Shown here: positions 28,243-58,444 of the stretch, in pieces | Position numbering within the stretch: position 1 is the first letter of the stretch | Layout: every line of letters starts with the position of its first letter | Source of the DNA: Candidatus Bathyarchaeota archaeon | Lineage (GTDB): Archaea; Thermoproteota; Bathyarchaeia; TCS64 | Assembly (NCBI GenBank): GCA_963769425.1 | Contig: CAVYLP010000004.1 | Span: forward strand, 160,001-224,000 | Direction of reading: 5' to 3' | DNA length: 64,000 nt | Program-made: the position numbers and the translations under genes | The notes under the pieces: model-generated | The model's database searches: none | The model's input: only the letters and a program-made list of their open reading frames with translations | What the model was told of the DNA's origin: nothing

Positions 28243-28355
28243 TCACTATTAACTATCAGGTGGATGTGAGGATAAGACTATTACACGTAAGATGAGGCTT
28301 ATACCGAAGTAACTTTGGGATAAGTTTTTTCGAAATCAGGCAGAGCTAAGGATGA
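28243..28355. repeat. cassette repeat copy A
   Basis: TCACTATTAACTATCAGGTGGATGTGAGGATAAGACTATT..AGATGAGGCT..TTTGGGATAAG..GAGCTAAGGAT. Confidence 0.88.
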
Positions 28356-31761: not shown

Positions 31762-31801
31762 TCACTGTTGACTACCAGGTGTAAGTGAGGATAAGACTAT
31801 T
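31762..31801. repeat. cassette repeat copy D (left half only)
   Basis: TCACTGTTGACTACCAGGTGTAAGTGAGGATAAGACTATT, then similarity stops. Confidence 0.82.
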
Positions 31802-31930
31802 GAATTTGAAGTGGCAGGATTTCCATTAATTTTGAATAATGAATTCTATTTTAAAAAAAGGTAAAATCAAATTACCTATCTTTGGTAATGGTGTGAAAAA
31901 ATGAAGAATCTCAGATGAAAACCTACTAAA

Positions 31931-42624: not shown

Positions 42625-43662
42625 TTGATTGTTACGGGTATGAGCCTTCGAGACAGGGCTGATGCCTTATTCTCTGCATACACAGGAGCTGTGCCTGGTG
42701 CGTCCTTCGTGATCGTCAAGGAGGGTGAATTACTCCTCAACAAGAGCTACGGGATGGCAGAGCTCGAGTCTAAGATCCCAGTAAACTACTCGTCGAATTT
42801 CCGCTTAGCTTCCGTAACGAAGGCCTTCACTGCTATGTGTGTCCTCAAACTCGTCGACTCGGGGAAGATTAGCCTCGATGACAGGTTGTCCACATTCATC
42901 TCCAGTCTACCCAGGTACGCTCACGATATCACTGTGAGGCAGATGCTTGGCCACACCTCTGGTCTAGTCGATTACGAGGCGGATGTTCCAAATGACTACC
43001 TTGGGCAGGTGCATGAGGATTATGTCATCGAGAAAGTGAAAAGTACCCCTTCCACGTATTTCCCACCTGGTTCAAAGTTCCAGTACAGTGATACCGCCTA
43101 TGTGCTCCTCGCTGTGATCGTCGAGCGCGTATCTGGAGTCCCATTCAGGAGGTTCATGGAGCATGAGATTTTCAATAAAGTAGGGATGTCAGGTTCGAGG
43201 CTCTACGAAGGCGAGAACGTCAAGATCAAGGATAGGGCATACGGCTACACGAAAAGCGGTAGCGGGTTCAAGCCCAACGACCAGAGTAAGACGAGCGCGA
43301 CACTTGGAGATGGCTGCGTTTACTCTTCTACTAACGATCTCGTGAAGTGGGATAAGGCGCTCAAATTGGGTAGACTTGTTAGTGAGGATCTTCTCAGACA
43401 GGCATTCAGCCCTGGAAAGCTGCTAGATGGCACAGCAACGGAGTATGGCTTTGGCTGGTTCATCCTGAACCAGAATGGACAGAAGATATTCCACCACGTC
43501 GGGGAGACCGCAGGTTTCCTGAACAAATTCATACGGATACCCGAGAAGAGGATTGCGCTGATCATCCTCACAAACAGGGACTCTTGGGATCTCTCGCTTC
43601 AGAAGAAACCCACGGAGGCTGAAGACACTATTGGGCTTCTGAAATATTTTGATCTAATTTAA
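42625..43662 (+). CDS. serine hydrolase, beta-lactamase family
   Basis: FRLASVTK (SxxK), HTSGL, QYSD, YGFGW. Confidence 0.9.
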   Translation: MIVTGMSLRDRADALFSAYTGAVPGASFVIVKEGELLLNKSYGMAELESKIPVNYSSNFRLASVTKAFTAMCVLKLVDSGKISLDDRLSTFISSLPRYAHDITVRQMLGHTSGLVDYEADVPNDYLGQVHEDYVIEKVKSTPSTYFPPGSKFQYSDTAYVLLAVIVERVSGVPFRRFMEHEIFNKVGMSGSRLYEGENVKIKDRAYGYTKSGSGFKPNDQSKTSATLGDGCVYSSTNDLVKWDKALKLGRLVSEDLLRQAFSPGKLLDGTATEYGFGWFILNQNGQKIFHHVGETAGFLNKFIRIPEKRIALIILTNRDSWDLSLQKKPTEAEDTIGLLKYFDLI

Positions 43663-43674
43663 AAAAATTCTAAA

Positions 43675-44307
43675 CTAGCGGGTTCTCTCGACGAGCTCTT
43701 CTACCTTCGCCTTAGCACCGCCCATTATGTCCTTGCCGTGGGCGTAGAGGAGGTAATCGAAGTCGTACTTGAGGAGCCTATCCATCTCCTTCGCAGCCTG
43801 CTTAGCGTCAAGGCAGTACTTCTCCGGCGGTGGAATCAGGTTACTATCGACGTCCCCGAAGACTGTGTCACCAGCGATGATCGCCTTCTGCTTTCTGAGG
43901 TAGAAGCTTGAGTTGCCCTCACTGTGGCCGGGGACCCAAATGACCTCGATGCCGCCACAATATGGAATGACCTCACCATCCTCTAAGCCCTCAATTTTAA
44001 CTCCGACTGCTTTCTCAATGAGTGGTGCCTCCAGTTTATGGGCCTTGATGGGTGCGCCGGTGAGCTCCTTGAGTTGGGGGAGGTTCTTTGTGTGATCGCC
44101 GTGTTTGTGGGTGACGAGTATTAGCTTAACATCCCTCCACCCTTTCTTCATCGATTTGAGCTCGGCGCCGATGTTGTCTACGTGCTGTGGGGTCATGCCT
44201 CCATCGACGAGGACGACTCCCTCCTTGCAGTCTAGGACCCAGCACTCCATGCTGTGGTCCTTATTATCTGAGTTGTCTATGCTGTGGACTCCCTTGAGGA
44301 CTTCCAT
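43675..44307 (-). CDS. metallo-beta-lactamase-fold hydrolase
   Basis: THKHGDH, PGHS, AGD, HG. Confidence 0.88.
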   Translation of the reverse strand: MEVLKGVHSIDNSDNKDHSMECWVLDCKEGVVLVDGGMTPQHVDNIGAELKSMKKGWRDVKLILVTHKHGDHTKNLPQLKELTGAPIKAHKLEAPLIEKAVGVKIEGLEDGEVIPYCGGIEVIWVPGHSEGNSSFYLRKQKAIIAGDTVFGDVDSNLIPPPEKYCLDAKQAAKEMDRLLKYDFDYLLYAHGKDIMGGAKAKVEELVERTR

Positions 44308-44350
44308 AGTTGACGTGTTTGAAGGGGTGTACTTAAAATCAAAGCCTGCC

Positions 44351-44941
44351 TCATGGGGCTGGTGTTGTATTAGCCTTTAATGGGGCTGGCGGGATGTATT
44401 TCGCGTAGAGTTTACTGGCTAACTCAGGACTGATGTTGAGCTTCATTACGTCTCCTTTGTGAGGCTCTGTTCCAAAGTAGATGAAGCCCATTTTCTCGTA
44501 GAACTTCCTGAGTTGGCGCCCCTTCTCGTCCTGCTCCTCGGTGTAGAGGGTGACATAACTTTTACCAGCGTTCTGCGCATGGACGACTATGAGTGTTGCG
44601 AGAGTGTGGCCGATACCCTTTCTCTCGACCATTGAGGCCAGGGTATCGAGGAAAAAACCGTTCTCGGGCTCGTCATAGCCGTACACTATGCCAAGCGGCT
44701 GACCGCCACACTCGGCGAGGATGAGGAGGAAGCCTGGGATAGAGCTGTGGTCGAGGACTTCCTCGTGTCTGTATCTTAGTTCCTCTCTGAATTTCTGGGC
44801 ATCCACTTGGAGGATTGCGTGGACGAGGGAGTCGTTCAACCTATGATGGATCTGAATCGTACAATCTTTGCCTACTATCTGGCTAAGTCTAGCCTTCGTG
44901 GCGGCAACGGCCTCGGCGAGCGTCGGAACGCTGGCGCTCAT
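44351..44941 (-). CDS. GNAT N-acetyltransferase
   Basis: RKGIG, FYEKMGF; start uncertain. Confidence 0.75.
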   Translation of the reverse strand: MSASVPTLAEAVAATKARLSQIVGKDCTIQIHHRLNDSLVHAILQVDAQKFREELRYRHEEVLDHSSIPGFLLILAECGGQPLGIVYGYDEPENGFFLDTLASMVERKGIGHTLATLIVVHAQNAGKSYVTLYTEEQDEKGRQLRKFYEKMGFIYFGTEPHKGDVMKLNISPELASKLYAKYIPPAPLKANTTPAP

Positions 44942-45236
44942 CGTTGATTGACTGTGTATCGGTCTCCTCCATATCCTTTGTCGATGTTTTTTCGACCGGG
45001 GTCCCATTGGGGCGATGTATTCCTTTCAAAATTACGCGATTTTAAGCCCCCGTTTCGTGTATCTCCGCTTAAAACGTGTCAATTTCATTTTAGTTGAGGT
45101 GCGTTTTTACCTCCTCGATGACACCTCAGTCGAAAAAATCGACTCTCATCTGAAGCATATTTTTACCCTATTTGGTAAACCAAGCCTATTTTTAGGTTGT
45201 TTCCTAGGATTTTTTGGGGTATTGCTGTGAGGGGTT

Positions 45237-45848
45237 TCATTGCCTTCTAAGAGGCTCCCTCCACATACACCATAAGCTGGGACCGTCCAAGAGGCGGACC
45301 TCTTCGGTGATCTTGAATCCATTACGCTGGTAGAGTGGGTTGTTTCTGGGATTGCTGCTCTCCAAGTAAGCGGGGATACCCTGTTCGTCCAGGCGACTGA
45401 GAGTGTAATGTAAGAGGGCTGAAGCATAGCCCTGCCCCTGCTTGCTCGGATCGACACCTATAACGTCAAGGTACTGGTGGGGGACACGTGGTCTGTGATC
45501 ATCGCAGGCTTTGATGAACGCCATCATCCTGCGGACCCGTCCTAGACCAGAGTAGCCAATCAAATGAGGAAGTGTGAGAATGGGGTCGATAGGGCTGTGG
45601 AATTCGTTCAATGCTTCGGGTGGTGCCCATATGGCACAGGCGTTGAGGTCGGTGGTCGTTGTCTCCTCCCCGTAGCGAAGGGTTCCCTGAATTCCTCTGC
45701 GGAACATTGTGCGAAGGGCGTTCATCCTACCTGCGTCTGTGCGCATTGCCCAGTCGATTACGGGGTCAGTGCTAAATGCTTGGGTTAGGACTTCGGAGAG
45801 GCGCGGGATGTCCTCTTTCCTGAGCTCCCTTACCTCTATGCCCGACAC
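45237..45848 (-). CDS. GNAT N-acetyltransferase
   Basis: YLDVIGVDPSKQGQGYA, AYLESSNPRN..LYQRNGF. Confidence 0.88.
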   Translation of the reverse strand: MSGIEVRELRKEDIPRLSEVLTQAFSTDPVIDWAMRTDAGRMNALRTMFRRGIQGTLRYGEETTTTDLNACAIWAPPEALNEFHSPIDPILTLPHLIGYSGLGRVRRMMAFIKACDDHRPRVPHQYLDVIGVDPSKQGQGYASALLHYTLSRLDEQGIPAYLESSNPRNNPLYQRNGFKITEEVRLLDGPSLWCMWREPLRRQ

Positions 45849-45925
45849 GGGGGATTAGGAGTTGATTCCAGAGATAACCCTTTCATATGGAAAGTTAGAA
45901 AGGGCGGGCTTCCCGTCGAGAGCCT

Positions 45926-46276
45926 ATGCCTTTTGAGCGTCGCGGCGAGAAGCTGCTGCCGAGGAAGGCTTTCGTCTCGAGGGTGGTGAAGTATACCCTT
46001 CTATCCCTCGCTCTAGTCGTAGCCTCGCTCTTAGTCGGAATCCTCGGCTACACACAGCTTGGTGGTCTTTCACTCGTGGATGCTTTTCTCAACTCGGCTA
46101 TGATTATGGGTGGCATGGGCCCGGTCAATGTGCTCAGTAACGACTCGGCTAAACTGTTCGCAGGTTTCTACGCCCTCTGGTGCGGGTTCGTCGAGCTAGT
46201 CGCAGTCGGGATATTCGCTGCCCCTATCGTCCACCGCCTCCTCCACAGGTTCCATCTTGAAGGTGGTCGGGACTAA
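45926..46276 (+). CDS. small two-TM ion-channel-like membrane protein
   Basis: DAFLNSAMIMGGMGP pore-like segment, PIVHRLLHRFH. Confidence 0.75.
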   Translation: MPFERRGEKLLPRKAFVSRVVKYTLLSLALVVASLLVGILGYTQLGGLSLVDAFLNSAMIMGGMGPVNVLSNDSAKLFAGFYALWCGFVELVAVGIFAAPIVHRLLHRFHLEGGRD

Positions 46277-46397: not shown

Positions 46398-46536
46398 ATA
46401 GAATGTGTATTCGAAGTTTAAGAGGATCAGGAACGGGGAGCACTAGACCCTTGAGACGCTTATCAATGAAGAGGCATTGTTATTCGCCAAGTATCTTAGA
46501 GGAGAGATTAAAGTATGGATTCCTAGAATAGTTTAA
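46398..46536 (+). pseudogene. cas1: 3'-terminal relic of a second cas1
   Basis: KRIRNGEH*TLETLINEEALLFAKYLRGEIKVWIPRIV matches the C-terminus at 52240-52350; internal TAG. Confidence 0.85.
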
Positions 46537-46569: not shown

Positions 46570-47349
46570 CTAGTCCATTAGCGCACCCGCGTCTACGTTT
46601 ATGTCCTGTCCGGTAATGTTAATTGAATCCTCCGAGGCGAGGAAAACAGCCAACTTCGCAACGTCATCCGCCGAAATCAAGCAATTAAGAGAGGACTGTG
46701 ACAAAAACCTCTGCTTGACAACATCTCTCGGGACACCTTCCTTCGCAGCAACCTGATCACAAACCATCTCGATCCTCGGCCCAGCCACAGGACCCGGACA
46801 AATAGCGTTTGCTGTTATCCCGAACTTACCCAACTCAACAGCAAGCCCTCTGGTGAAGCCAATCAACCCCATCTTTGTCGCAGGGTAAGGGGATCTGTTC
46901 GCCAGCGGCTTTTTGGCAGCCGTAGAGGAAATGTTGACGATCTTCCCATATCTATGTTCAATCATTGTCGGCACAATGGCTCTGCAGCAGAGAAATGCTC
47001 CTCTAAGATTCACAGCGAAGATTTCATCCCACTGTTCGGGTGTAACCTCGTAGATTGGCACAGTTGGTCCTGCGATGCCGGAGTTGTTCACTAGAATGTC
47101 TATTTTACCGAACTCATTGATAGTATCCTTAGCTGCATGGTTAACCTGTTCGACGCTCGTTATGTCCATGGTATTAACCAGAGCCTTCCGATCAAGTGCC
47201 CTGATTTCTCGTGCTACGTCTTCCATCTGATTGGTTGACTTCGCTGCTAGAGAAACATGTGCGCCTTCGTGCGCAAACATCAGGGAGATTGCTTTACCTA
47301 TCCCGACGCCTCCACCTGTGATGAATGCGACTCTATTTTCAAGTTTCAA
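46570..47349 (-). CDS. short-chain dehydrogenase/reductase
   Basis: ITGGGVGIG, DILVNNSG, YPATK, NAICPG, ITGQ. Confidence 0.92.
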   Translation of the reverse strand: MKLENRVAFITGGGVGIGKAISLMFAHEGAHVSLAAKSTNQMEDVAREIRALDRKALVNTMDITSVEQVNHAAKDTINEFGKIDILVNNSGIAGPTVPIYEVTPEQWDEIFAVNLRGAFLCCRAIVPTMIEHRYGKIVNISSTAAKKPLANRSPYPATKMGLIGFTRGLAVELGKFGITANAICPGPVAGPRIEMVCDQVAAKEGVPRDVVKQRFLSQSSLNCLISADDVAKLAVFLASEDSINITGQDINVDAGALMD

Positions 47350-47399
47350 ATAAAACGCCTCATTCTTTGATCGATATCAATAGCGCTTGTAATAAAACT

Positions 47400-47436
47400 G
47401 ATGAGAGGGTTTGGGTTTGGGGGATAAGACTTTATC
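47400..47436. repeat. boundary motif R1
   Basis: GATGAGAGGGTTTGGGTTTGGGGGATA-AGACTT-TATC. Confidence 0.85.
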
Positions 47437-48479
47437 TATCATTAAAAAATAGTGATCTCGGTATAAGTGCATATTATAGAGAAAACCCTATTAAATCTAA
47501 TCCAAATAAATTTGCTAGACATTTAATAAAAGAAAAGGTCGATAAAATATTAGAGTATAAACTATTACAAATAGATAATAATTACTTAATGATTGAATTT
47601 ATAATATCATTTGTCGATCATTTTAATGAACAATTAGGGATAATAGTATCTGATAACTATTCTTTAGATGAAATTGAGAAAGGATTTTTTAGATATTTAC
47701 CAATATGGCTAGATGAAGCCATTAAATTTATGCTTAGAACAAAAAGAAATGGGGTTACTTCAATTGAACGGTTATTATATAAAAAACCTTATTTTAATCC
47801 AGATATGCTCAAATCCCAAATTATGAAAGATGAAAGGGAAGAAATACGTAAGAAGGTTGTTGATAGGTTAAATAAAGATGAAAGTATTTCCCTATCCATT
47901 GGAAATGAAAAATATCCAATGAAATTGTTCCATGATTTTTTTATAAGATTAAAATTAATGGGTATTAAAGACATACATAGAATATACCGAAAAAAAGATT
48001 ATAATAGACTCAGTAACGGAGGATTAATATGGAATCTTTTATCAGAAGAGGCTTTAAGCTATAATTTAAATATTTTTTTTAATAACTTTTTTAAGATTTA
48101 TTCAGAAATTATACAACTAAATTTTCCTAAAATATCAAATAAGATTAATAAGTATAAAAATTTGTCAGGGATTTTATTAATTTATAAATCTTTAGATCAC
48201 TATGAAGATGGAAAAGAAGTACCGAGTATACGATATTACTATTTACATAATAAAGAAAATTTCAACTTTAACATATTTATCTATAAAGAAAACGAAATAA
48301 AAGAGTTAAAAAACAACACTCCTGAAGCAATAATTAATATAAACAAGGTAGAATATCAAGCCGTATTAACCGGATCTCAAATATTAGATTTTATTTATGA
48401 TGATTTACCAATGTTCACGTATCTATACGAAGATATCAAAGGAGATTTGAACGAATATTTTGAAAATAATGAAGACTAA
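47437..48479 (+). pseudogene. AT-rich hypothetical gene, apparently 5'-truncated at R1
   Basis: frame is open from the motif onward; the ORF-track N-terminus is read-through of the repeat. Confidence 0.6.
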
Positions 48480-48603
48480 TTATAGAATTTTTGAGAATAT
48501 TTTCCGTTTTTATCTATTCGCTTATACTTTCTTTATCACGTTTTCACATATTATGTGTATTATCGAACAATATTAAAAAAACCAATATTAACATAAATAA
48601 CCT

Positions 48604-49287
48604 TTAAAGGTGGTTAACATTTAATTTAATTAATAAATTAATACTTCCTTCAGGCATTTTTTCTTGAGGCATTTCAATCATATCTTTTGATGTAGGACAT
48701 GAAGGTTGTAATAATTTAAATTGATCAAGAATTGTGTCCCAATGAGCTAATTTAATATTTTCACTTTTATATAGTAATTTTCTTGTGTCAAACATTTTAT
48801 CAAATAATGATTCGTGTCTTTGATGTGGTATTTCGGATTTCCTTTCTATTTTGGTATTACTACTACCTATAATTATTCCACCGATTTTCACATTTTTTGG
48901 ATCTTGTATTTTAAAATCATTTAAAAACTGTTGATTATTTTTTTGATCTAAATAATAATGTAGTAATTGATTTTCTGCTTTTACTAAATCGTCGCTTGGT
49001 TTTAGCCTGTTTTCATTATCTTTTTTAAAAATAAAACATTGTGGAGCTTTAGCTTCCCAAATAAATGCTTCATTATACTGTGTTCCTAAATCATCTTCGG
49101 TTATACCGGATATGATAATATCTGAGTCCCCTGAATTTCCTCGGTATTCTATATCTATTTTAATTTTATTGATCAATTTATCTCTAAATAAATAATTTTC
49201 TAATTTTATTAAATATTTTTTACATTGCTCTTCCTTATTTGAATCGCTTTCAATTAATTTTTTTAATTCGTCGTAATCAGATGTCAT
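48604..49287 (-). CDS. PD-(D/E)XK nuclease, Shedu/DUF4263-like
   Basis: E..C..YL, SDII, WEAKAP, DLVKAENQLLHY, IIIG. Confidence 0.6.
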   Translation of the reverse strand: MTSDYDELKKLIESDSNKEEQCKKYLIKLENYLFRDKLINKIKIDIEYRGNSGDSDIIISGITEDDLGTQYNEAFIWEAKAPQCFIFKKDNENRLKPSDDLVKAENQLLHYYLDQKNNQQFLNDFKIQDPKNVKIGGIIIGSSNTKIERKSEIPHQRHESLFDKMFDTRKLLYKSENIKLAHWDTILDQFKLLQPSCPTSKDMIEMPQEKMPEGSINLLIKLNVNHL

Positions 49288-49612
49288 AATTTAACACCTT
49301 GTTTCATTTTTAAAAAATATGAAATTAAATCTTCTAGATAATCAAGATAATTTTCTTTATTAATTATTTCTCCAAACGATATTAAAATACATAGTTTTAG
49401 AGAATAACTTAAAATTCCGATATCTTTTACATTAATAGATTGTTTATGATTATCTATTATTATTGTACTATCTTTTCCCAGCGTTATACTAAATCCGTTA
49501 ACACTACAATATGAAATAAAAAAATTTCTACTATTATTCACTACCCATGCAGATTTTGTTTCATCTATTTCTGTTTTGAATAAACCAAGAAACGGAAAAA
49601 TATTTTTATCAA
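49284..49612 (-). pseudogene. AT-rich gene fragment, 5'-truncated
   Basis: frame stays open upstream of the called start (VDKNIFPFLGLFKTE..) up to the GC shift. Confidence 0.5.
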
Positions 49613-49753
49613 CTAATCCTCAAGCTTGAACCAGTAACAGGTTCTCCTTGCCCAGTACTTCACAAGCATCAACGGGACTCCATCGAAGTCAAGCTTCACC
49701 GTTGACTTGTCAGAGATTCCGAGGATAAAATTAGGATTCGACTCGCTTGTCAA
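49613..49753 (-). pseudogene. N-terminal fragment of a putative primase-like (DxD) protein
   Basis: manual translation MTSESNPNFILGISDKSTVKLDFDGVPLMLVKYWARRTCYWFKLED*, overlapping the upstream ORF, ends at the GC shift. Confidence 0.45.
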
Positions 49754-50078
49754 CCCAATAACCCCCAGTCGAATATCTATCAGGATTAATCAGAAAATCA
49801 CCACAGGACACTGAAACAAAACGACCCCTAGGGGGATGATTCACAGCATACGCGATACACTGATACAAGTCCCTCCCTGACCCATTGTAGAACTCGTACC
49901 TTCGCGATGCACTACCCTCCCTAGTCACGCTGTAGCCATACATGGCGACACTCTTACCGACAAACGACCTTGAAACCGTGACTTCGACGTACCTCACCCA
50001 GTGTGTGAACCTGCCCCTAGAGTCGCGGGTAACGGTGAACCTCCCTCTATTGCCCCAAGTCTCATTCCGCGTCGGCAT
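49731..50078 (-). CDS. hypothetical protein of the cas1-linked module
   Basis: 115 aa, RDSRGRF motif, overlaps neighbours and has a GGAGGAG SD-like site. Confidence 0.7.
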   Translation of the reverse strand: MPTRNETWGNRGRFTVTRDSRGRFTHWVRYVEVTVSRSFVGKSVAMYGYSVTREGSASRRYEFYNGSGRDLYQCIAYAVNHPPRGRFVSVSCGDFLINPDRYSTGGYWVDKRVES

Positions 50079-50493
50079 TGGTGGGCTCCTCCTTCGGGAT
50101 TCCTAGGAAAATTAGGTTGCCGTTATCGAGTTTCACAATGTCCCATGCTAGGCATGATTTCAGGTAGTCCTCAAGGTAGCGGGTATCTACCCCGATGTAG
50201 CTCCTGAGGCGTGGCTTGATGAAATCATTCCAGTTTCTGCCCGAGTTTTCACTTATGAATAAGATGAATCTTTCCCAGTGTGTGTAGGCGATTTGCTTCG
50301 AGAGGTTCTGTTTCTCGATCCCAATGTGCTTTAGAACCGCCTCAATTTTTTGATTTTCTGAATGCACGAGGTTGAGTTTGGGTTTGATTTGAAAGTCATT
50401 AATTTCAACCCATCTTCTGTGGCATTCTGGACTGCAGAACTTGTGAGGCTCCGGGATCTCCTTCCCGCATTCGGGGTTTCCGCATGTGGGCAT
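50062..50493 (-). CDS. Zn-ribbon protein with possible C-terminal winged helix
   Basis: CGNPEC..FCSPEC; start coupled to upstream stop (TAATG). Confidence 0.72.
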   Translation of the reverse strand: MPTCGNPECGKEIPEPHKFCSPECHRRWVEINDFQIKPKLNLVHSENQKIEAVLKHIGIEKQNLSKQIAYTHWERFILFISENSGRNWNDFIKPRLRSYIGVDTRYLEDYLKSCLAWDIVKLDNGNLIFLGIPKEEPTNADAE

Positions 50494-50633
50494 TAACTCA
50501 CCTCCTTCGGGTCGTTATACTTCGTTTTCATCGTCCGACGTACATCGAGGCGATAGTGCAGATAGAAGCAGTACTTCTGCCCCTCGTGGTTGGATACGAA
50601 CTCTTTCCCACAAAACTCACATTTCTTCAACAT
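50493..50633 (-). CDS. 46-aa zinc-finger microprotein (not in ORF track)
   Basis: MLKKCEFCGKEFVSNHEGQKYCFYLH..; stop overlaps next ATG, GGAGGTGA SD within its 3' end. Confidence 0.62.
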   Translation of the reverse strand: MLKKCEFCGKEFVSNHEGQKYCFYLHYRLDVRRTMKTKYNDPKEVS

Positions 50634-50673
50634 TTAGACCGGATTATGTCTCACTCGCAAAGTATTTAATTAT

Positions 50674-50720
50674 GATAAGACGTGTCATAATATGACAAAT
50701 GTCATGACGGTGATTGTCAT
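50674..50720. promoter_or_regulatory. divergent promoter with TGTCAT/ATGACA operator-like repeats
   Basis: TGTCAT-AAT-ATGACA (50683-50697), TGTCATGAC (50700-50708), TGTCAT (50715-50720). Confidence 0.55.
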
Positions 50721-50735
50721 ACATCGGGTGGTTTA

Positions 50736-51338
50736 ATGGCTAAACGCAAAACTCTTGGATCAACTCAGGAAAAGATCGTCCTCTATCTTGCTAATAACCC
50801 CGGAAAAACAATGAGCGACATGCAAAAGGACTTTGGCATTCCCAGAAACTCATACAACGTAATTCATAGACCCACTAAGGTACTAGAAGAAATGGGGTAC
50901 GTCACATTTAGTGAGAAACCTTCAGAAAAGGCTCGACCAAAGTATCCCGTTTCTCTAACTGAAAAAGGAGTACTCTACGCCCTATCCAAGACGCCAGAAA
51001 TAAAGAAAATAAAAAAGATCCTAGGCAACTACTCTACGATATACCCCGGTTTTAAGAGATACTTGGAATTATCGCAGGAGTTAGGTGATGAACTTTTCAT
51101 AAAAATATCTCCAAACCTGTTCTATTCCTATTCAATGTATGACACTGCGAAAAGTGAAGATGACAGATTGCAAATTGGTTGGTCATTAGGGGCTATTTTC
51201 GGTTCAGAGATGGACGAAGAGGATCGCGAAAAATTCTTTGATGTTATTTTCAAAATTTACCCTGAGTTTTTACCAGAATTCAATAAGATGGCGGAACAGT
51301 TCATGAAAATGTTCCGGAAATATGGTGCGTCTATTTGA
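50736..51338 (+). CDS. winged helix-turn-helix regulator
   Basis: TQEKIVLYLANNPG..LEEMGYV..SLTEKG (MarR/ArsR-like wing). Confidence 0.78.
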   Translation: MAKRKTLGSTQEKIVLYLANNPGKTMSDMQKDFGIPRNSYNVIHRPTKVLEEMGYVTFSEKPSEKARPKYPVSLTEKGVLYALSKTPEIKKIKKILGNYSTIYPGFKRYLELSQELGDELFIKISPNLFYSYSMYDTAKSEDDRLQIGWSLGAIFGSEMDEEDREKFFDVIFKIYPEFLPEFNKMAEQFMKMFRKYGASI

Positions 51339-52378
51339 CCAAATTGGAAACCAAGCTCGTCCTCGATGGGAATGGATCTCTATCTCGGCATGGAGAAGGG
51401 CTGTTTTGTCCTAAAAGACAAGAATGGCGGGATCAACAGGTATCCCTTATTCGAGCAGGAAATAGACGAGGTTATATTGAAAAGTGGTAACAGTATTTCG
51501 ACGGGGGCTTTAGCTTCATTCGGCTTCTGGGATATCGATGTTATGGTGATGACCTCTCGGGGTCGCCCGGTCGCGATGCTCAGGAGCTTCGATGATGATT
51601 CTCACGTTGAAACTAGAGTAAGTCAGTACAGGGCGAGCCTTGATGAGAGAGCCTTCGAGATTGCAAAGACTCTCGTAATTGCGAAGCTTGAGCCAGAATA
51701 TTCTCCTGAGAAAATATGGTCTTGAGCCTCATGATGAAAAATTCAGGGATCAGGTAGAGAAAAGCGATTCGAAGAATCTAGTCTCGTTGAGGCAGAGGCT
51801 TACAGGGATCGAAGGAAAATACACTCAGAAATATTACTGGGAGATATTCAATCTACTCCCCGAGAAGATCCGACCAGAGAAGAGGGAAGGTTTCATGGCT
51901 TATGATGGAGTTAACAACCTCTTCAATCTGGGCTATGAGGTTCTAGGTTGGAAGGTTCACAAGGCTCTCGTTAAGGCGAAGCTTGAGCCCTATCTCGGTT
52001 TCCTTCATAGTAATCAGATGGGGAAGATGAGTCTCGTCTGTGATTTTCAGGAGATTTACCGATATCTGATTGATGATTTTCTGATCAAATACTGCAAGAG
52101 AATTGGCAGGAAAGACTTCGTCACAAAAATAGAGGTTATAAATAAGCGTAGGAGGGGAAAAAAGAGAGTATCTCAATAACTCGGATACAAAGTCTCTCCT
52201 TGATGAATTGAACGCTTTTTTCGAGTCCATTGTTGAGGTTAAGAGGATCAGAAACGGAGAACATCAGACAATTGAAACACTCATTAATGAAGAATCTTTA
52301 TTATTTGCTAAATATTTAAGAAATGAACGAATAGAATGGAGTCCTCGAAATTGGGTGGAAAATAATGGATCTTTTTAG
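51335..52378 (+). CDS. cas1: Cas1-family integrase (solo), frameshifts near 51380, 51690 and 52165
   Basis: reconstructed protein: YLGMEKGCF, RGRPVA, RVSQY, LTGIEG (E), NNLFNLGY, LEPYLGFLH (H), SLVCDFQE (D/E); TTG start overlaps the wHTH stop. Confidence 0.92.
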
Positions 52379-53275
52379 ACTAAAACTTAAAATTAAGTTT
52401 TTCTTAAAGGAAAGAAAAAACTAATTGCTAAGGTACTCAGTATTGGGTTAATTATATTATTTGGCGCTTTATTTTTTTACCTCGGTTCGAATTCTTTATT
52501 GTACTACTATAATCCACCTATTCATAAAATTAATTCAATGTATCAAGGCTTTTCAGTTGGATATAATTCCACAAGGGATTTTAGACCCAACCAAGTAGAA
52601 ATTATGATAACGCCGAATAATACTCTTAACGAAGTAATGATAACAACTAAATTTTATGTCACTATTAAGAACAATGGTACATATAATATTAAATATTTAC
52701 TACCTTTTCATCTAATTAAATTACCAAATAATAATACTAGAATTATATATAAAAATTATTCTCATGGAGTTATTATAGGGACATCAAGAGAATATCAGAA
52801 CATACCAAAAAGTGAATCAGCAGAAGTAAATGATGTCATCATTTTTTCTTTTTATTCTAATGATACATTTATTAGTGGAGAAAAAGGTAAATATTTATTA
52901 GTTTTACCATTTTCATATCCTGATTATTCGAGTAAGGAAATTAACCTGATAAATGATAAATTTGATATTCCATTTATTATTTCAAACCTAACTAAGACTA
53001 TATCTATTAACTTATCAAATCAATTTATTATTACAAACTCCATTCCTAATTATAATAATGGTCCCAATTATTCTAATTACACATTTAATGTTAAATGGGA
53101 AGCACCGAAACTACAAACTTTTAGTTTATATTTAGATTCGCCAAATGAAATTGAATCTTATAATTATACTTTATTTTTAGGAGGTCTTTATGTCGGCATA
53201 GGAATCCCTTTAACTATTCAAGGAATAATCGAATGGATTAAATTAATTATTGAATCACTAGATAAAAATTCTTGA
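52365..53275 (+). CDS. AT-rich membrane-anchored hypothetical protein
   Basis: N- and C-terminal hydrophobic segments; ATG at 52365 needs frameshift correction. Confidence 0.6.
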
Positions 53276-53354
53276 AATCTTTCATTACCCTTTCTTAAAT
53301 TTTTTAATTTCAAAATTGAAGGTTTTATATTTAGTTTATTACCTTTATCCAATA

Positions 53355-54095
53355 ATGGCGGAAATTGAAAAAGAGCATCAAGCTAGACTGGACAAATTAT
53401 TTAAAAAGAGAGAAAAATTACATGGATATAAGATATTAACAGAGTTAGAATCATTAAATAGGACATATTTTATTGTTGAGCATAATTTTGACGATTTAAT
53501 GGAATATATTAAAAAATGTCAAAACGAGTTAATATTTGAAATATTTGAAAATGGACAAATAGCAAATAATACTAAATTGGAAACTTTACGCCTATTACAC
53601 AATTATTTGTCCAGTATACAATCTTTAATAAATCATATAAGAAAAACTAATAAAAATATTGATAGTAATGAATTAAATGAATATTATGAAGATGAAATGA
53701 TTAAATTTTCCAAAAATAATTTGGTAATTTTTATTAAAAATTTTCGAAATTATATACAACATTTTAAGATACCTTTACTTGCACAACAATTTCATATTTC
53801 TAAATTAGAAAACCAAAAAGTTTTGACAATGGAGGACATAGATGCGAGAAACGCTAAATTTGAATTCAATACATTCTTAAATAAAAAAGAATTATTGAAA
53901 TGGGATAGATGGAATAGACAATCAATAACTTATATAAAAAAATATATAGGAAAAAAAGAACTTAAAACCATTATTTCTGAATATCAAAATATGAATAGTA
54001 AACACTATGAGGATTTTTGTGATAAAGTATATGAAATATATAAAAAAGAAATAGATATAGTATATAATATAAATGTTGAAATTGATAATCTATGA
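53355..54095 (+). CDS. AT-rich helical protein with RxxxxH motif (HEPN-like)
   Basis: RLLHNYLSS..FIKNFRNYIQH. Confidence 0.55.
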   Translation: MAEIEKEHQARLDKLFKKREKLHGYKILTELESLNRTYFIVEHNFDDLMEYIKKCQNELIFEIFENGQIANNTKLETLRLLHNYLSSIQSLINHIRKTNKNIDSNELNEYYEDEMIKFSKNNLVIFIKNFRNYIQHFKIPLLAQQFHISKLENQKVLTMEDIDARNAKFEFNTFLNKKELLKWDRWNRQSITYIKKYIGKKELKTIISEYQNMNSKHYEDFCDKVYEIYKKEIDIVYNINVEIDNL

Positions 54096-54225
54096 TAATT
54101 CATCCCATTATTCTTATTTATTATTATATATGAAAAAAATCAATCAGATTATTTAGTAATGCCCAAATAGAGTTAATTACCTAAAATTACAATGTAGTGT
54201 GTGATATACGTGATACGGTGATTTG

Positions 54226-54425
54226 TGTAGGAGAGTATAAGGGAATAGAAGAGAATAGAGGAGAAAAAGTGAAAGTTAGTTCGTGAGCAGATGAGAGGGG
54301 GTTTGGGGGATAAGACTTTAGCCCCAAATCCAAGTCTTTCTTTCCTCCATTACTACCTAACACTAACTCCCTACTCTCTTACACTCTTCCCCCCGCTCTC
54401 TCTACAACCAGACAGACAAACGAAC
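54226..54425. repeat. boundary motif R2 within a head-to-head purine/pyrimidine inverted structure
   Basis: GATGAGAGGGGGTTTGGGGGATA-AGACTT-TAGCCCCAAATCC (54290-54331), purine-rich left arm, pyrimidine-rich right arm. Confidence 0.85.
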
Positions 54426-54516
54426 GAATAATTTTAAAAAAGGGAGTTGATATGTTCTAAGAATTAAGCAAAGTGGCAAATACTGTGCTAATACGTTATT
54501 GTCGGTAGGACACACA

Positions 54517-56458
54517 ATGACTCACTTTCCAAACCTTTTCAGTACGATGAAATTAGGGCCCTATGTGTTAAAGAATCGGATTGAATCCGCGCCTATGGGA
54601 ATGCATGGCACACCAGAAGGATACCTGACCGCTGAGAATGCAGCATATTATGAGCTCCGGGCGAAAGGCGGGGCAGCCATCGTCACCCTTGGGGAAAGCA
54701 TGGTGGATTCAAAGGGGACATCTCACGGGAGGGTAACCCCGCTGGATGACCCGGGGATCCTGCCCTCCCTGATCAACACAACAGACGCGATTAAAAGACA
54801 TGGTGCCATCGCCTCAATCGAATTACTACACGCAGGAATCCGGTCGGGGACACAGCGGCCAGACGACCCAGTATACGGCCCAAGCGCGGGGACATCCTTC
54901 TACGGCAAACAGATCATCGAGATGGGGGACGCGGAGATCGACCAGGTCGTGAACGCCTTCGGAGACGCGGCCGAGATGGCGAAGATGGGCGGCTTGCAGA
55001 TGTGCATGATCCACGGGGGCCACGGCTGGCTCCTGTCGCAGTGGTTCTCCCTCCTGCACAACCACAGGAAAGACAACTTCGGGGGAAGCATCGAGAACAG
55101 GGCACGCATTGCATTGATGATCATCGAGGATATACGGAAAAAATGCGGTCCGAATTTCCCGATCGAGATCCGACTGAGCGGCGATGAGTTTACGGAGGGC
55201 GGCATGAAGCTAGAGGAAACGGTTGAACTCGCAAAGGTGCTAGATGGTAAAGTCGACCTGATCCACGTATCCGCGGCGACCTTTAATGACCGAACCGCAG
55301 GCCTCAGGATGTTTCCCAGCGTGTTCCTCCCCCGGGGCTGCAACGTGTATCTCGCCGAGGCAATCAAGAAAGCCGTGAAGACTCCAGTGGCCACAGTCGG
55401 GTCATTGAACGATCCCGCCCACATGGAGGAGATCTTGGAGAGCGGAAAGGCGGATGTGATAACCCTGGGAAGGGCGCTTCTGGCAGACCCCTACCTACCG
55501 GAGAAGGCGAGAAAAGGGGACGAGGAAGACATCACGCCTTGCATCCGCTGTAATTACTGCATCAGTCAGAACTTTACTCCCTATGTGAAATACCCAAAAG
55601 GTGTCGCCAGGTGTGTTGTCAACCCGATAATAGGCCGGGAGTATGAGAGCCGGTTTGTCCAAGTGAGCGGCGGAAAGAGGAAGGTGATGGTGGTCGGAGG
55701 CGGACCGGGAGGGATGCAGGCCGCGATCACGGCCGCGGACCGGGGACACGAAGTGATCCTCTGCGAAAAAGGTAAACGACTCGGCGGGACGCTGCTATAC
55801 GCCGAGCATGAATACTTTAAAGAGGACATAAAGAAGCTGACCGAGGTACTGATCAGGCGGGTACAGAAACGGCCGATAAAATTAATGATGGATACGGAAG
55901 CCACGCCTGAGGTCGTTAAAGAAATCTCCCCCGATGTTCTGATAGCCGCAGTGGGAGCCGAGCCAATCATTCCCAACATACCCGGAATAAAGAACAAGAA
56001 TGTGGTTGTCGCTGCGAGCATGTATGATGAAGCACGCCATCGGCAAGAAGGTGGTCGTCATAGGAGGCGGGCTGGTGGGCTGCGAGGAGGGGCTACACCT
56101 CGCCCACCAGGGCAGGGAAGTGACCATCCTGGAGATGCTCGAGAAGGCTGCGCCGGAAGCACCCTACCTGCACTGGCTGGGGCTGATGAAGGAGCTCGAA
56201 AAGAGTGTCCGGCTGGAGACACGCGCAAAGGTTACACGAATAACGGAAGAGGGCGTGTTCGCAGTAAATGAAAAGGGAGAGGAACAGTTCTACGAAGCGG
56301 ACACGGTACTACTGGCGGTCGGGCTTAAGCCGAGAACAGAAATGGTTGAGCCCCTGCGAAACTGCGCACCGGATTTCGTAGTGATAGGAGATTGTCTACG
56401 GCCAGCAACCGCTATGGAAGCGATACATATGGGCTATTTCTCCGCCATGAATGTCTAA
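54517..56458 (+). CDS. NADH:flavin oxidoreductase (OYE-like plus FAD domain), frameshift near 56030
   Basis: LKNRI..APM, RAKGG, HGGHGWLLSQ, CIRCNYC, VVGGGPGG, VIGGGLVGCE, VIGDC. Confidence 0.92.
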
Positions 56459-56558
56459 AATTTCATTTAATCTCTATAAATACAATCGTGATAGGTCTCC
56501 AGTAAACAGACAGACGAATTACAGTTTAGCTTTGTTGTCGGCAACTCGATGTATGCTA

Positions 56559-56993
56559 TTATGGATAGAAGTGCACTATTTTTTTCGGCACGACCCTTAA
56601 CGTGACCTGAGTCTTATCATCGAACTCTGAAATGAAAGATGACTCCCTATGATATTTACCCCACACCCATTGCACATACTTGTTATAACCCTCCTCCGGC
56701 TCAAAGCCAAGCTCTGCCAATCCGTAAACCAATGCACATCTAGATGGAGTATCACCTTCACCAAGTTTTGACCCCTGCATGAGGAATGAGAGGGACACGT
56801 TATTGTTTCGCTTGATGTTCTCTACTCTTTTTGATTTCTTTATGGATACGAAGTAGAAGACATTGTCTTTGTAATTGTACCATATGGGGGCAGCATGGAT
56901 GGTGCCATCCTTATTGTGACTACAGAAAATTGTGGTGTAAGATTCCATAAATAAGCTATGCACGTCCTCTTTGGTCATCTTGTTGGTACTCAT
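56559..56993 (-). CDS. pyridoxamine 5'-phosphate oxidase family protein
   Basis: DGTIHAAPIWY, SKRVENIKRNNNVSL. Confidence 0.8.
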   Translation of the reverse strand: MSTNKMTKEDVHSLFMESYTTIFCSHNKDGTIHAAPIWYNYKDNVFYFVSIKKSKRVENIKRNNNVSLSFLMQGSKLGEGDTPSRCALVYGLAELGFEPEEGYNKYVQWVWGKYHRESSFISEFDDKTQVTLRVVPKKIVHFYP

Positions 56994-57155
56994 GAAAGTT
57001 ATATCCCCATATTGCTGACAGGCGACTCGATAATAAAGCAATACTCAAGAACGCGTCGTTCAAATAACATCTACGTTCTCCAGGTGCAAACATGTGTGTT
57101 TGTCCGGTTATTTCCCTATAGTTCTAGAGAAAATATGAGAGAATAAGATAAGTAA

Positions 57156-57191
57156 ATGAGGTTTGGGTTTGGGGGATACGGTTTTATCCCC
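57156..57191. repeat. boundary motif R3 (right end of island)
   Basis: ATGAGGTTTGGGTTTGGGGGATA-CGGTTT-TATCCCC. Confidence 0.82.
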
Positions 57192-57226: not shown

Positions 57227-58444
57227 GTGTCCGGTCAATCGGGCGAGGCTTCAAGTTACCGGTGGGCTGTACTCGGTATCGCGTGGCTCAGCTACCTAGC
57301 CGTCTACATGGTGCGTGTATCTATTCCTCCACTTTCCCCTTTCATAGTGGAGGAGCTTAGCCTCTCGAAGACGGATGTGGGGCTCCTCGTTTCCGCTGGG
57401 GCTATCGGTTACTCGGTTTTTCAGCTCCCAGCTGGATGGCTCATCGACCGATTCGGCGTGAGAAAGATGCTTGTGACCAGTTGCTTCGCCGCTGGCGCGA
57501 TCATCAGTGCTATGTACTTCGCGAGCAATTTTCCGATAGCCTCCGCAGTCCTATTCCTCGGAGGCTTCGGTTACGGCTGTTTTCCAGCCGTGGCGACGAA
57601 AGCCTTGCTAACATGGTTTCCAGTGAACGAGAGGGGCACAGCGGTTGGCCTACAACAGACGTCAATAAACGCAGCGGGGATAATCACCGCGGTGAGCCTA
57701 CCCATCTTAGCGGAGGCTCTTGGGTGGCGCTTCGGATTCATCGGCGTCGGAGCATTCTCAATGATCGTTGCAGGAGTCGTCTACATCTTCTACAAAGAGC
57801 CACCTGCCGTACAACTAGAGCCGTCGACTCGTAGGAAAACGAGCCTTGCCGACATGAAGGAGGTAATATTCAACAGGAACATATTGCTCGTGAGCGCATC
57901 CTGCATAGGCTTCATGGCGGTCGACTACTCACTGACCACCTATCTAGTGATTTACCTGAAGGAGTCCGTGGGAGTAGCGGTCGCCCTCGCCGGAGTCTTC
58001 CTAGCGCTAACAAACATCGGCGGCCTCATGGGGAAGCTCTTCTTCGGCGTCATGAGTGACCGGTTCTTCGGGGGAAGCAGGAAGAGGCCGTTACTACTCG
58101 CCGGGGGCGTTATGCTCGCTATCTCCATCGCCGTTCAGGCTGTGAGCCCAGCGTCCCCAGGGTGGCTAATTGCCCTAATATTCGGCGTTTTCGGCTTCAG
58201 CGCCATCGGCTGGGGCGGGATGAACCTGATCCTAGTCTCGGAGTCGACGAGGAAGGAGAACGCGGGACTCGCAATGGGTTTCTCGCTGATGATCCTGCTC
58301 ATCGGGAACATCGCTGGTCCACCGATCTTCGGGTACATAGTTGACACGACGGGCTCCTACTCGCCGGCATGGTGGTTCCTGACTGCGTGCAGCATTGGAG
58401 CCGTTGCGCTAATGTCGCTAGTGAAGGAGAAGAAAGAGGGCTAA
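57227..58444 (+). CDS. MFS transporter
   Basis: GWLIDRFGVRK, WFP..ERGTA, 12-TM pattern. Confidence 0.92.
   Translation: MSGQSGEASSYRWAVLGIAWLSYLAVYMVRVSIPPLSPFIVEELSLSKTDVGLLVSAGAIGYSVFQLPAGWLIDRFGVRKMLVTSCFAAGAIISAMYFASNFPIASAVLFLGGFGYGCFPAVATKALLTWFPVNERGTAVGLQQTSINAAGIITAVSLPILAEALGWRFGFIGVGAFSMIVAGVVYIFYKEPPAVQLEPSTRRKTSLADMKEVIFNRNILLVSASCIGFMAVDYSLTTYLVIYLKESVGVAVALAGVFLALTNIGGLMGKLFFGVMSDRFFGGSRKRPLLLAGGVMLAISIAVQAVSPASPGWLIALIFGVFGFSAIGWGGMNLILVSESTRKENAGLAMGFSLMILLIGNIAGPPIFGYIVDTTGSYSPAWWFLTACSIGAVALMSLVKEKKEG

Follow-up and report, generated by a model that had tools for sequence, protein, structure and literature searches.

The window, the 64,000-nucleotide stretch of a Candidatus Bathyarchaeota genome analysed here, carries a row of three gene units (A, B and C), two of them with cas1 sequences, whose boundaries are marked by copies of a short and seemingly palindromic motif that we call R. 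Copies R1, R2 and R3 were all found on the + strand, where an earlier note on this DNA had placed them, with spacings of 6.9 and 2.9 kb. The genes of the units also agree with its description: unit A holds a cas1 relic and a gene for a short-chain dehydrogenase/reductase (SDR), unit B is an island with its own cas1, and unit C encodes an oxidoreductase and a PNPOx protein. Each R has a G-rich element side followed by a short sequence, T, which we read as a copy of an insertion target. The window thus read contains three successive right ends in one orientation, and unit C alone has both terminal repeats. The units and motifs are as follows.

46415-46528, + strand: cas1 relic of unit A, the last ~38 codons (114 nt), with an in-frame stop and the 5′ part lost
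47400-47423, + strand: element side of R1, GATGAGAGGG and then the G-run (GGGTTT)2GGGGG at 47407-47423
47424-47435, + strand: T1, short target copy, ATAAGACTTTA(T), with ATAAGACTTTA at 47424-47434
47436-54309, + strand: unit B, a low-GC island of 6.9 kb (23-46% GC), a cas1 element
51366-52378, + strand: cas1 of unit B, in three frames (pieces 51366-51725, 51679-52179 and 52208-52378)
54297-54309, + strand: G-run on the element side of R2, GATGAGAGGGGGTTTGGGGG, ending at 54309
54310-54321, + strand: T2, ATAAGACTTTAG, followed by CCCCAAATCC at 54322-54331
54322-57175, + strand: unit C, without cas1, both terminal repeats present
57160-57175, + strand: G-run on the element side of R3, GGTTTGGGTTTGGGGG, ending at 57175
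57176-57187, + strand: T3, ATACGGTTTTAT, then CCCC at 57188-57191

The 11-mer from which the motif was first described is weak evidence by itself. Allowing at most one mismatch, it matches the window 3 times against 1.30 expected, and 17 of 100 shuffled sequences reached 3, which is not significant. The 21-mer GGTTTGGGGGATAAGACTTTA, at 3 mismatches or fewer, recovers these same sites, with 0.00 expected and no match at all in 100 shuffles. Five copies of the exact 11-mer occur in the whole 2,551,316-base genome, 3 of them inside this 10-kb stretch. R is a composite of a G-rich element end, (GGGTTT)nGGGGG, a T of 12–13 nt and, optionally, the next element's end, CCCC(AAACCC)n. It looks palindromic because two inverted element ends abut a short central sequence. 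The 11-6-11 geometry proposed before, with two inverted 11-nt arms around a 6-nt spacer, does not describe it: at R1, whose element side is the tip of the right terminal repeat of unit A, the C-run (inverted arm) is absent and AT-rich island DNA lies immediately 3′ of T1, at R3 the arm is merely CCCC, and the conserved centre is about 13 nt. The arrangement common to relatives is a G-run, about 13 nt, and a C-run. The site orthologous to T2 in genome G002 has an identical T and an identical right flank; the G002 counterpart of T3 is GGGAACGGTTTTAT.

Base composition changes at R1 and R2. In 1-kb bins, the DNA from 47 to 54 kb has 23–46% GC, against 49–62% on either side (53–57% for the genome), and the only strongly AT-rich stretch of the window is bracketed by these two motifs. 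At R3 the break is slight (48 to 53%). No tRNA was found in the window that could serve as target, and a search of positions 1-64000 against Rfam gave nothing relevant, its sole match being a weak, sub-threshold snoRNA. A reading of '...GGGGGATAAGACTATGG' as a ribosome-binding site and ATG was dropped, as no consistent open reading frame (ORF) begins there.

Beyond the window, the 21-mer (at most 3 mismatches) occurs in 10 of 41 genomes searched: in 8 of 17 relatives of the same genus, in the window's own genome, and, as one match with 3 mismatches, in 1 of 23 genomes of other genera. A reversed-pattern control gave 2 matches in total. The eight genus relatives have 1–16 matches each, and the window's genome has 10 strictly defined ends. 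Such copy numbers bear on the alternative that the earlier note had offered, namely that R is a Xer/dif-type chromosome resolution site, of which a replicon would have one. The arm-spacer-arm symmetry of R2 and R3 resembles such a site superficially. We nevertheless give this explanation practically no weight: the genome has ~10 copies and relatives have as many as 16 matches, a second arm is missing at R1, the motif is found at the borders of islands and cas1 genes instead of marking one terminus, and the genome's single tyrosine recombinase gene, the sole Phage_integrase-family match, is distant, lying ~58 kb beyond the window end.

Aligned copies from the genus have a constant centre, GATAAGACTATGG in most relatives. 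It is preceded by (GGGTTT)nGGGGG or a GT-run, and followed by CCCC(AAACCC)n, CCCC(AC)n or unrelated DNA. Among ~31 clear copies, read by eye, about two thirds are two-armed, ~6 show the G-run alone, and in 3 the left flank is another conserved sequence. Ahead of the G-run lie ~50–100 nt that are rich in purines and poor in C, and the complement of this stretch comes after the C-run.

The motif is tied to cas1. In genus relatives, it lies 0.7–3.9 kb past the 3′ end of the gene in 10 of the 12 evaluable copies, defined as those at least 55% identical to the window's. Four of five cas1 3′ segments in the window's genome have a strictly defined end 0.76–1.96 kb downstream, where chance would give ~0.0098 per segment. 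All six genus relatives with a cas1 match of at least 55% identity carry the motif. Of the nine genus genomes without the motif, eight give no cas1 match either, and G013 has only a copy of 35% identity. The scan thus finds R strongly enriched downstream of cas1, rather than lacking any such enrichment, the outcome that the earlier note had named as fatal to its proposal. The variable slot for cargo that the note also described, from the cas1 3′ end to R, is real and recurs in relatives, with different cargo in each case between the cas1 stop codon and the motif, including an MFS transporter, a TIR-domain protein, NERD and RelA/SpoT-like proteins, AHSA1, ferredoxin and unknowns. The TIR-domain protein (L025:670-1497, between cas1 and the right end) matches Pfam CAP12/Pycsar TIR with E 7.4e-35 and the PADLOC candidate system PDC-S35 with E 2.8e-58; the cargo slot can therefore carry defence genes.

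A separate 30-nt motif, TATCAGGTGGAAGTGAG then GATAAGACTAT(T/G)G, bears the T of R and is present in 13 copies in the genome, two of them in the window (28254-28283 and 31773-31802) and 11 elsewhere. The copy at 28254 is followed by a conserved ~50-nt segment capable of forming a hairpin and by a degenerate second copy. In several genomes, the 30-nt motif is the non-element flank beside T at element ends. It may be a target that the elements naturally prefer, comparable to the leader-like motifs at the targets of casposons.

Screening a single genome per species brought up 64 loci that encode this Cas1, nearly all in Bathyarchaeia metagenome-assembled genomes whose sources were soil, peat and springs. 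About 30 of these loci include almost the full protein, and 34 encode parts of it, for the most part C-terminal. Downstream of cas1, the 11-mers shared most often belong to (TTTGGG)n and to an AT-rich near-palindrome (for example ATTAAAATTTAAT), and outside the genus the same layout is seen with lineage-specific T sequences. Five elements have ends of (CCCAAA)n / (TTTGGG)n and matched flanking direct repeats of 12–13 nt, which differ between elements:

L048, 4403 bp: clear terminal inverted repeats, flanking repeat ATTAAATTTTAAT
L060, 5278 bp: clear terminal inverted repeats, flanking repeat ATTTAATTTTTAT
L079, 1520 bp, cas1 internally deleted: clear terminal inverted repeats, flanking repeat ATATATTTTTAT
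L047, 6231 bp: clear terminal inverted repeats, flanking repeat CATAAAGTTATTA
L026 unit, within the genus, 3.4 kb: CCATAGTCTTATC on both sides

In a blind scan with a loose arm pattern, an inward-facing arm pair was found in 19 of the 64 loci, and in 4 of these 19 the flanks match at 12 or more of 13 positions; 1.45% of 2620 between-locus control pairs reach that level. L047 and L026 were missed by the blind scan because their arms deviate from the pattern. The terminal repeats of L048, L060 and R1–R3 are simple (CCCAAA)n/(TTTGGG)n runs of 2–6 units, or (GT)n in some copies, and a single element has unequal numbers of units at its two ends. Such runs resemble telomeres and could fold into G-quadruplexes.

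An empty site is available for one of these elements. At the orthologous site in G053 the L060 element is missing, and its flanks (81% identical on the left, 84% on the right) are contiguous there around a single ATTTGATTTTTAT, with neither G nor C arms. Therefore, the arms belong to the element, and the 13-mer was single before insertion and double after it. In G096, the two genes that enclose the L047 element are separated by a 75-nt spacer, as against 6.3 kb, and the element is missing there too; this spacer has diverged too far for T to be traced in it. For L048 and L079, no usable orthologous flank was found in 30 relatives each. No empty site could be found for the window island, because the SDR gene that flanks it has no orthologue in the 17 genus genomes.

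These observations also bear on whether R might have no role in mobility at all and instead be an intergenic palindrome of the repetitive extragenic (REP) kind, a terminator, mRNA-stabilising hairpin or operator that accumulates in variable regions. Its copies are intergenic, and some stand beside ordinary operons, for instance after the pst-phoU cluster in L035. The region of R2 also folds into a long hairpin, the subterminal sequences 54191-54309 and 54322-54420 together forming a single imperfect one of ~190 nt (z = -2.45). Against this stand the fixed place downstream of cas1, the terminal repeats with matched flanks, and the empty site; at R1 and several other copies, moreover, there is only one arm, so no hairpin is possible there. 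We regard a REP-like origin as very improbable.

Cas1 is the only gene common to all units. Cas_Cas1 (Pfam) and TIGR00287 (NCBIfam) match both the window pieces (Pfam E 9.9e-13 and 2.5e-26) and intact relatives. The window pieces are 54–84% identical to intact relatives of 325–383 aa over the matched stretches, and the N-terminal piece shares 41% identity with the most distant of the intact copies. The three pieces line up in order with these homologues, and therefore the window copy has two frame breaks (+1 shifts), the second inside a GGGGAAAAAA run and the first outside any homopolymer. The IEGK, GFLH and DFQE motifs, which we take to contain the catalytic E, H and D of Cas1, align to solved Cas1 and to solved casposase. 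Intact copies, with pN of 0.11–0.37 versus pS of 0.68–0.99, are by this measure under purifying selection. With one intact Cas1 as query, 1649 proteins match at E ≤ 1e-10, a set that may include ordinary CRISPR Cas1; each of the best 120 of the 1649 has 58% identity or more. Viral contigs yielded no relative of this Cas1.

We looked for other enzymes in 287 ORFs (21 + 105 + 146 + 15) from the window and 19 related loci, among them 2 compact intact elements. By Pfam, these include no family-B polymerase, Cas2, Cas4, or tyrosine or serine recombinase. The window's genome has no Cas2 match. Neither it nor 106 loci contain a CRISPR-like array by k-mer scan, and the regular repeat spacing of such an array (~55–100 nt) is seen neither among the R motifs nor elsewhere in the DNA scanned. 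ORF 47325-48479, which crosses R1, was considered as a split SSV-type integrase and dropped; it has no family match.

Upstream of cas1, the fuller elements encode a ~165-aa protein, a small basic protein, a ~300-aa P-loop protein, a zinc-ribbon protein and a winged-helix protein. The ~165-aa proteins have a DxD ... SYH pattern and form two related families, present in 10 and 11 of the 64 loci (for example L053:5882-6376 and L058:1658-2209, with the ~300-aa P-loop protein encoded alongside). A search with this group gave 1207 representatives at E ≤ 0.001. The Pfam AEP-like family (PF24387) weakly matches 2 of 3 members of the family labelled fam2, and neither of the 2 fam1 members tested; it also matches 9 of 64 representatives of the wider ~165-aa family, 1 of them above cut-off. 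A primase-type replication module, with the AEP-like and P-loop proteins replacing the family-B polymerase (PolB), is suggested by these similarities as a lead, not a finding. The accessory proteins gave no matches to solved structures or phage families.

Might a transposase other than Cas1, of the DDE or IS110 (DEDD) type, mobilise the units in trans, with cas1 as a frequent cargo? R has IS110-family genes or fragments beside it in 3 loci (L031, L033 and L040), DDE_Tnp_1 insertion sequences lie within 2 loci, and units without cas1 bear the same ends. We consider this explanation distinctly improbable. The IS110 copies are enclosed as cargo or truncated, and neither transposase is found in the compact intact elements. 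The DDE element of L028 has different terminal repeats (TGTTTAGAAATTA) and is a secondary insertion within the winged-helix gene just upstream of cas1. Lastly, the position and orientation of cas1 are fixed relative to the right end, and the gene is under purifying selection. The IS110-family genes beside or between R-type ends are at G000:C2:121982-122002 (L040, ~10001), L031 8457-9505 and L033 223-633; the transposase on C2 is cut short at the G-run. A DEDD transposase between ends is absent from the window units and present in only these 3 loci.

Taken together, we think it rather likely that R is the joint left by casposon-like, PolB-less transposons with a Cas1 integrase, and that the window contains a decayed tandem array of them. 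The earlier note had proposed that insertions took place repeatedly at one site and that R is an end of the element or its target; R proves to be both, a right terminal repeat with a retained target. The evidence shows how R and the elements are built, that R goes with cas1, that inverted repeats form the element termini between matched flanks, and that one site is empty in a relative. Under our reading, Cas1 would be the enzyme, its attack would be staggered by 13 bp, and units without cas1 would be mobilised in trans. The outer tips of an element are 5′-CCCC(AAACCC)n at its left end and (GGGTTT)nGGGG-3′ at its right end, backed in this genus by ~50–100 nt that are pyrimidine-rich on the left and purine-rich on the right. 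Its cargo occupies the interval from the cas1 stop codon to the right end, and in fuller elements the AEP-like, P-loop, zinc-ribbon and winged-helix genes lie upstream of cas1. Cas1 would join the two 3′ ends to a short AT-rich T, on opposite strands and 12–13 bp apart. T would be regenerated because gap repair leaves one copy of it on each side, and further elements could then insert into T. The result would be head-to-tail arrays whose joints read G-run, T, C-run. In the window, unit A is eroded to its cas1 tail and SDR gene, unit B is the island with a frame-broken cas1 and no left end, and unit C is a cas1-less unit.

A number of observations weigh against this reading. In the window, the repeat flanking the island is 31–35 nt long, contains an indel and runs into the G-run, unlike a plain 13-bp duplication; the island has no left terminal repeat; and unit C is flanked by two different T sequences. 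On these last two points, the three window units are not equivalent clean insertions. More widely, clean matched flanks are seen in only 5 elements, and T is visible at only one empty site. The link to cas1 is also imperfect: 2 of the 12 evaluable copies have no motif within 6–9.5 kb; a T-type site lies within 6 kb downstream in only ~5 of 18 further loci with short cas1 3′ relics; and G008 and G011 carry the motif with no match to the middle piece of cas1, G011 having 3′ relics. As to the enzyme, the Cas1 profile scores CRISPR Cas1 (4n06) at 104.8 bits and casposase (6opm) at 69.4 bits, a difference that is not decisive. Several copies, moreover, look inactive. The genome's other Pfam cas1 match carries a stop, in addition to the two frame breaks of the window copy, and an intact-length Cas1 (L028:9629-10696) has K in place of the E of IEGK, which the other four aligned copies retain; with the DDE insertion just upstream of it as well, this copy is probably inactive. 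Finally, T is nearly invariant within the genus, which also fits the core of a site-specific recombinase, and an empty site would look no different if insertion went through a shared 13-bp core.

One alternative is a site-specific recombinase acting on cassettes loosely like those of an integron, with T as the crossover core, the G-rich, C-rich, GT-rich and purine-rich arms exchangeable for binding, and cas1 as a passenger or accessory. Besides the constancy of T and the equivalent empty site, it would accommodate arms that vary in combination and occur in both orientations, the many R-bounded units that lack cas1 and have only ordinary metabolic genes, and the unlike T sequences on the two sides of unit C. 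We nonetheless judge it unlikely. No tyrosine or serine recombinase is encoded by the 287 ORFs around these sites, and the genome's one Phage_integrase match is remote from them, as noted above. Within one family of elements, T varies but the terminal repeats remain similar, and the empty target in G053 is armless. The overlap regions of tyrosine recombinases are 6–8 bp, and a central region of 13 nt is long in comparison.

The remaining features of the window can be set beside the proposed Cas1 elements, unit by unit.

46570-47349, - strand: SDR, cargo of unit A between the cas1 relic and R1 (Pfam adh_short, E 2.4e-57)
47325-48479, + strand, and 49284-49541, - strand: AT-rich island ORFs without matches
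48604-49287, - strand: island cargo, 227 aa, weak match to the Shedu SduA C-terminal nuclease domain (Pfam E 8.1e-4, below cut-off)
49731-50078, - strand: small basic protein, 115 aa ('fam3'), a conserved element gene
50062-50493, - strand: protein with N-terminal zinc ribbon, 143 aa, a conserved element gene
50736-51338, + strand: winged-helix protein, 200 aa, immediately upstream of cas1
52499-54095, + strand: cargo slot of the island, two AT-rich ORFs of 258 and 259 aa
54191-54309, + strand: right end of unit B, a subterminal stretch rich in purines and poor in C that ends in GATGAGAGGGGGTTTGGGGG
54322 to ~54420, + strand: left end of unit C, CCCCAAATCC and a G-poor stretch
54499-56458: OYE-type oxidoreductase of unit C, frame broken near 56000
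56559-57041, - strand: PNPOx of unit C, between R2 and R3
57131-57175, + strand: right end of unit C, purine-rich, ending in GGTTTGGGTTTGGGGG (R3)
57227-58444: MFS transporter gene, after R3/T3

The cas1 relic of unit A is 72% identical in DNA, and 78% in translation, to 52236-52349 of the island, and this 114-nt tail segment recurs across the genus. To the left of unit A, a run of accessory-type genes (42625-46276) encodes a serine beta-lactamase-like protein, a metallo-beta-lactamase-fold protein, two GNAT acetyltransferases and a small channel-like ORF with two transmembrane segments; its GC content, 49–53%, is below the 57–63% of the window's first 10 kb. Unit B retains the core from the small basic protein through cas1, the cargo slot and a long right end. 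Its left end shows no C-run or G-poor stretch, and it lacks the AEP-like and P-loop genes, whose expected place is occupied by AT-rich cargo. The 227-aa Shedu-like protein has no PADLOC or PHROGs match, and the two ORFs of the cargo slot have no family match. The small basic protein is 48% identical to L028:7688-8011, and its family is found upstream of cas1 in 10 of the 64 loci. The zinc-ribbon protein was matched by eye, from its CxxC...CxxxC start, to a family found in 6 of the 64. The winged-helix protein is 62% identical to L027:8294-8905, in the equivalent position, and has weak HTH_24 and PHROGs regulator matches.

A relative of unit C is present in G002 and G014, in rearranged contexts. 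The G002 orthologue of its OYE/NADH-oxidase gene (54499-56458) is split into three pieces. The 6-contig assembly looks to us like a long-read one, and some frame breaks, those of cas1 included, may be assembly errors.

How do the proposed elements compare with known systems? We compared them with casposons of families 1–4, for example the tandem casposons of Methanosarcina, AciBoo-C1 and the family 1 elements of Nitrosopumilus. Published accounts describe casposon arrays in tandem, separated only by a shared target-site duplication, with sequence-specific targets and element-specific duplication lengths of 14–35 bp (PMC4779613, PMC9939771), and the review among them states that a family-B DNA polymerase is conserved in all identified casposons (PMC9939771). 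The two kinds of element have much in common: a solo Cas1-family gene in an element with terminal inverted repeats and a short duplicated target; insertion with sequence preference, in tandem arrays separated only by the shared duplication; and solo ends, decayed copies and element-specific cargo that includes nucleases (PMC4779613, PMC9939771, PMC6563490). Of the features that define a casposon, the present elements have the Cas1-family gene, the terminal inverted repeats, the target-site duplication and no link to a CRISPR array or cas2; the family-B DNA polymerase was absent from the 287 ORFs, its place being taken by a sub-threshold AEP-like primase family. The Bathyarchaeia elements are also much smaller (1.5–7 kb). 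Their Cas1 is ~340 aa, has no extra HTH domain and is closer in profile to CRISPR Cas1; the duplication is 12–13 bp, not 14–15 bp; the ends are (CCCAAA)n simple repeats; and the accessory set consists of AEP-like, P-loop, zinc-ribbon and winged-helix proteins, in a Bathyarchaeia host.

Three other systems share part of this behaviour. CRISPR adaptation by Cas1-Cas2 also has a Cas1-family enzyme, and there too the target is regenerated on both sides and the site is reused, so that the array grows; here, however, there is no Cas2, regular array or leader-repeat organisation, and the inserts are gene-sized with their own ends. Integron cassette arrays are likewise rows of one-to-few-gene units between imperfect palindromes, with accessory metabolism and defence as cargo. 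The present sites differ in that no IntI-type tyrosine recombinase is encoded nearby in the scanned ORFs, the joints occur in both orientations (mixed in L031 and L034) where attC sites are all in one, and the palindrome arises from two abutting element ends rather than a folded attC. Hot spots of the Tn7 type, a comparison made in PMC4779613, also come about by repeated insertion at one specific site, giving an island of intact and decayed elements; here there are no TnsABC-type genes, and the ends and duplication length differ.

The elements look like a compact relative of casposons that is common in soil Bathyarchaeia. The window's own copies are decayed, and their interest is the family they reveal. 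To our knowledge, only four casposon families have been described, all with a family-B polymerase. We found no description of Bathyarchaeia casposons or of such PolB-less elements in the literature; supplements to the casposon papers lay outside this search and might list related Cas1. Casposons have been proposed as ancestors of the CRISPR adaptation machinery. More tentatively, as a possibility that we would not yet call probable, soil Bathyarchaeia may host a large fifth kind of Cas1 transposon, one that lost PolB or never possessed it, with a CRISPR-like Cas1, a mini AEP-type primase-like protein and a P-loop ATPase, that regenerates a 13-bp target with every insertion and moves units without cas1 whose ends are like its own. 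It would amount to a Cas1-driven gene-cassette system that builds accessory and defence arrays, and to a living analogue of the proposed step from casposon to CRISPR array.

One practical point concerns annotation, in which these genes are now all labelled 'CRISPR-associated Cas1' though no CRISPR is present. If the proposed origin of R is true, a PolB-less Cas1 element would broaden the range of Cas1-driven mobility, combining a CRISPR-like Cas1 and a regenerated and reused target with arrays of gene-sized inserts. It would also offer a small and tractable system, with a ~340-aa Cas1, simple-repeat ends and a 13-bp target, for the question of how Cas1 measures and reuses its targets. And it would account for the way in which these abundant, uncultured soil archaea package accessory and candidate defence genes in the variable part of their genome.

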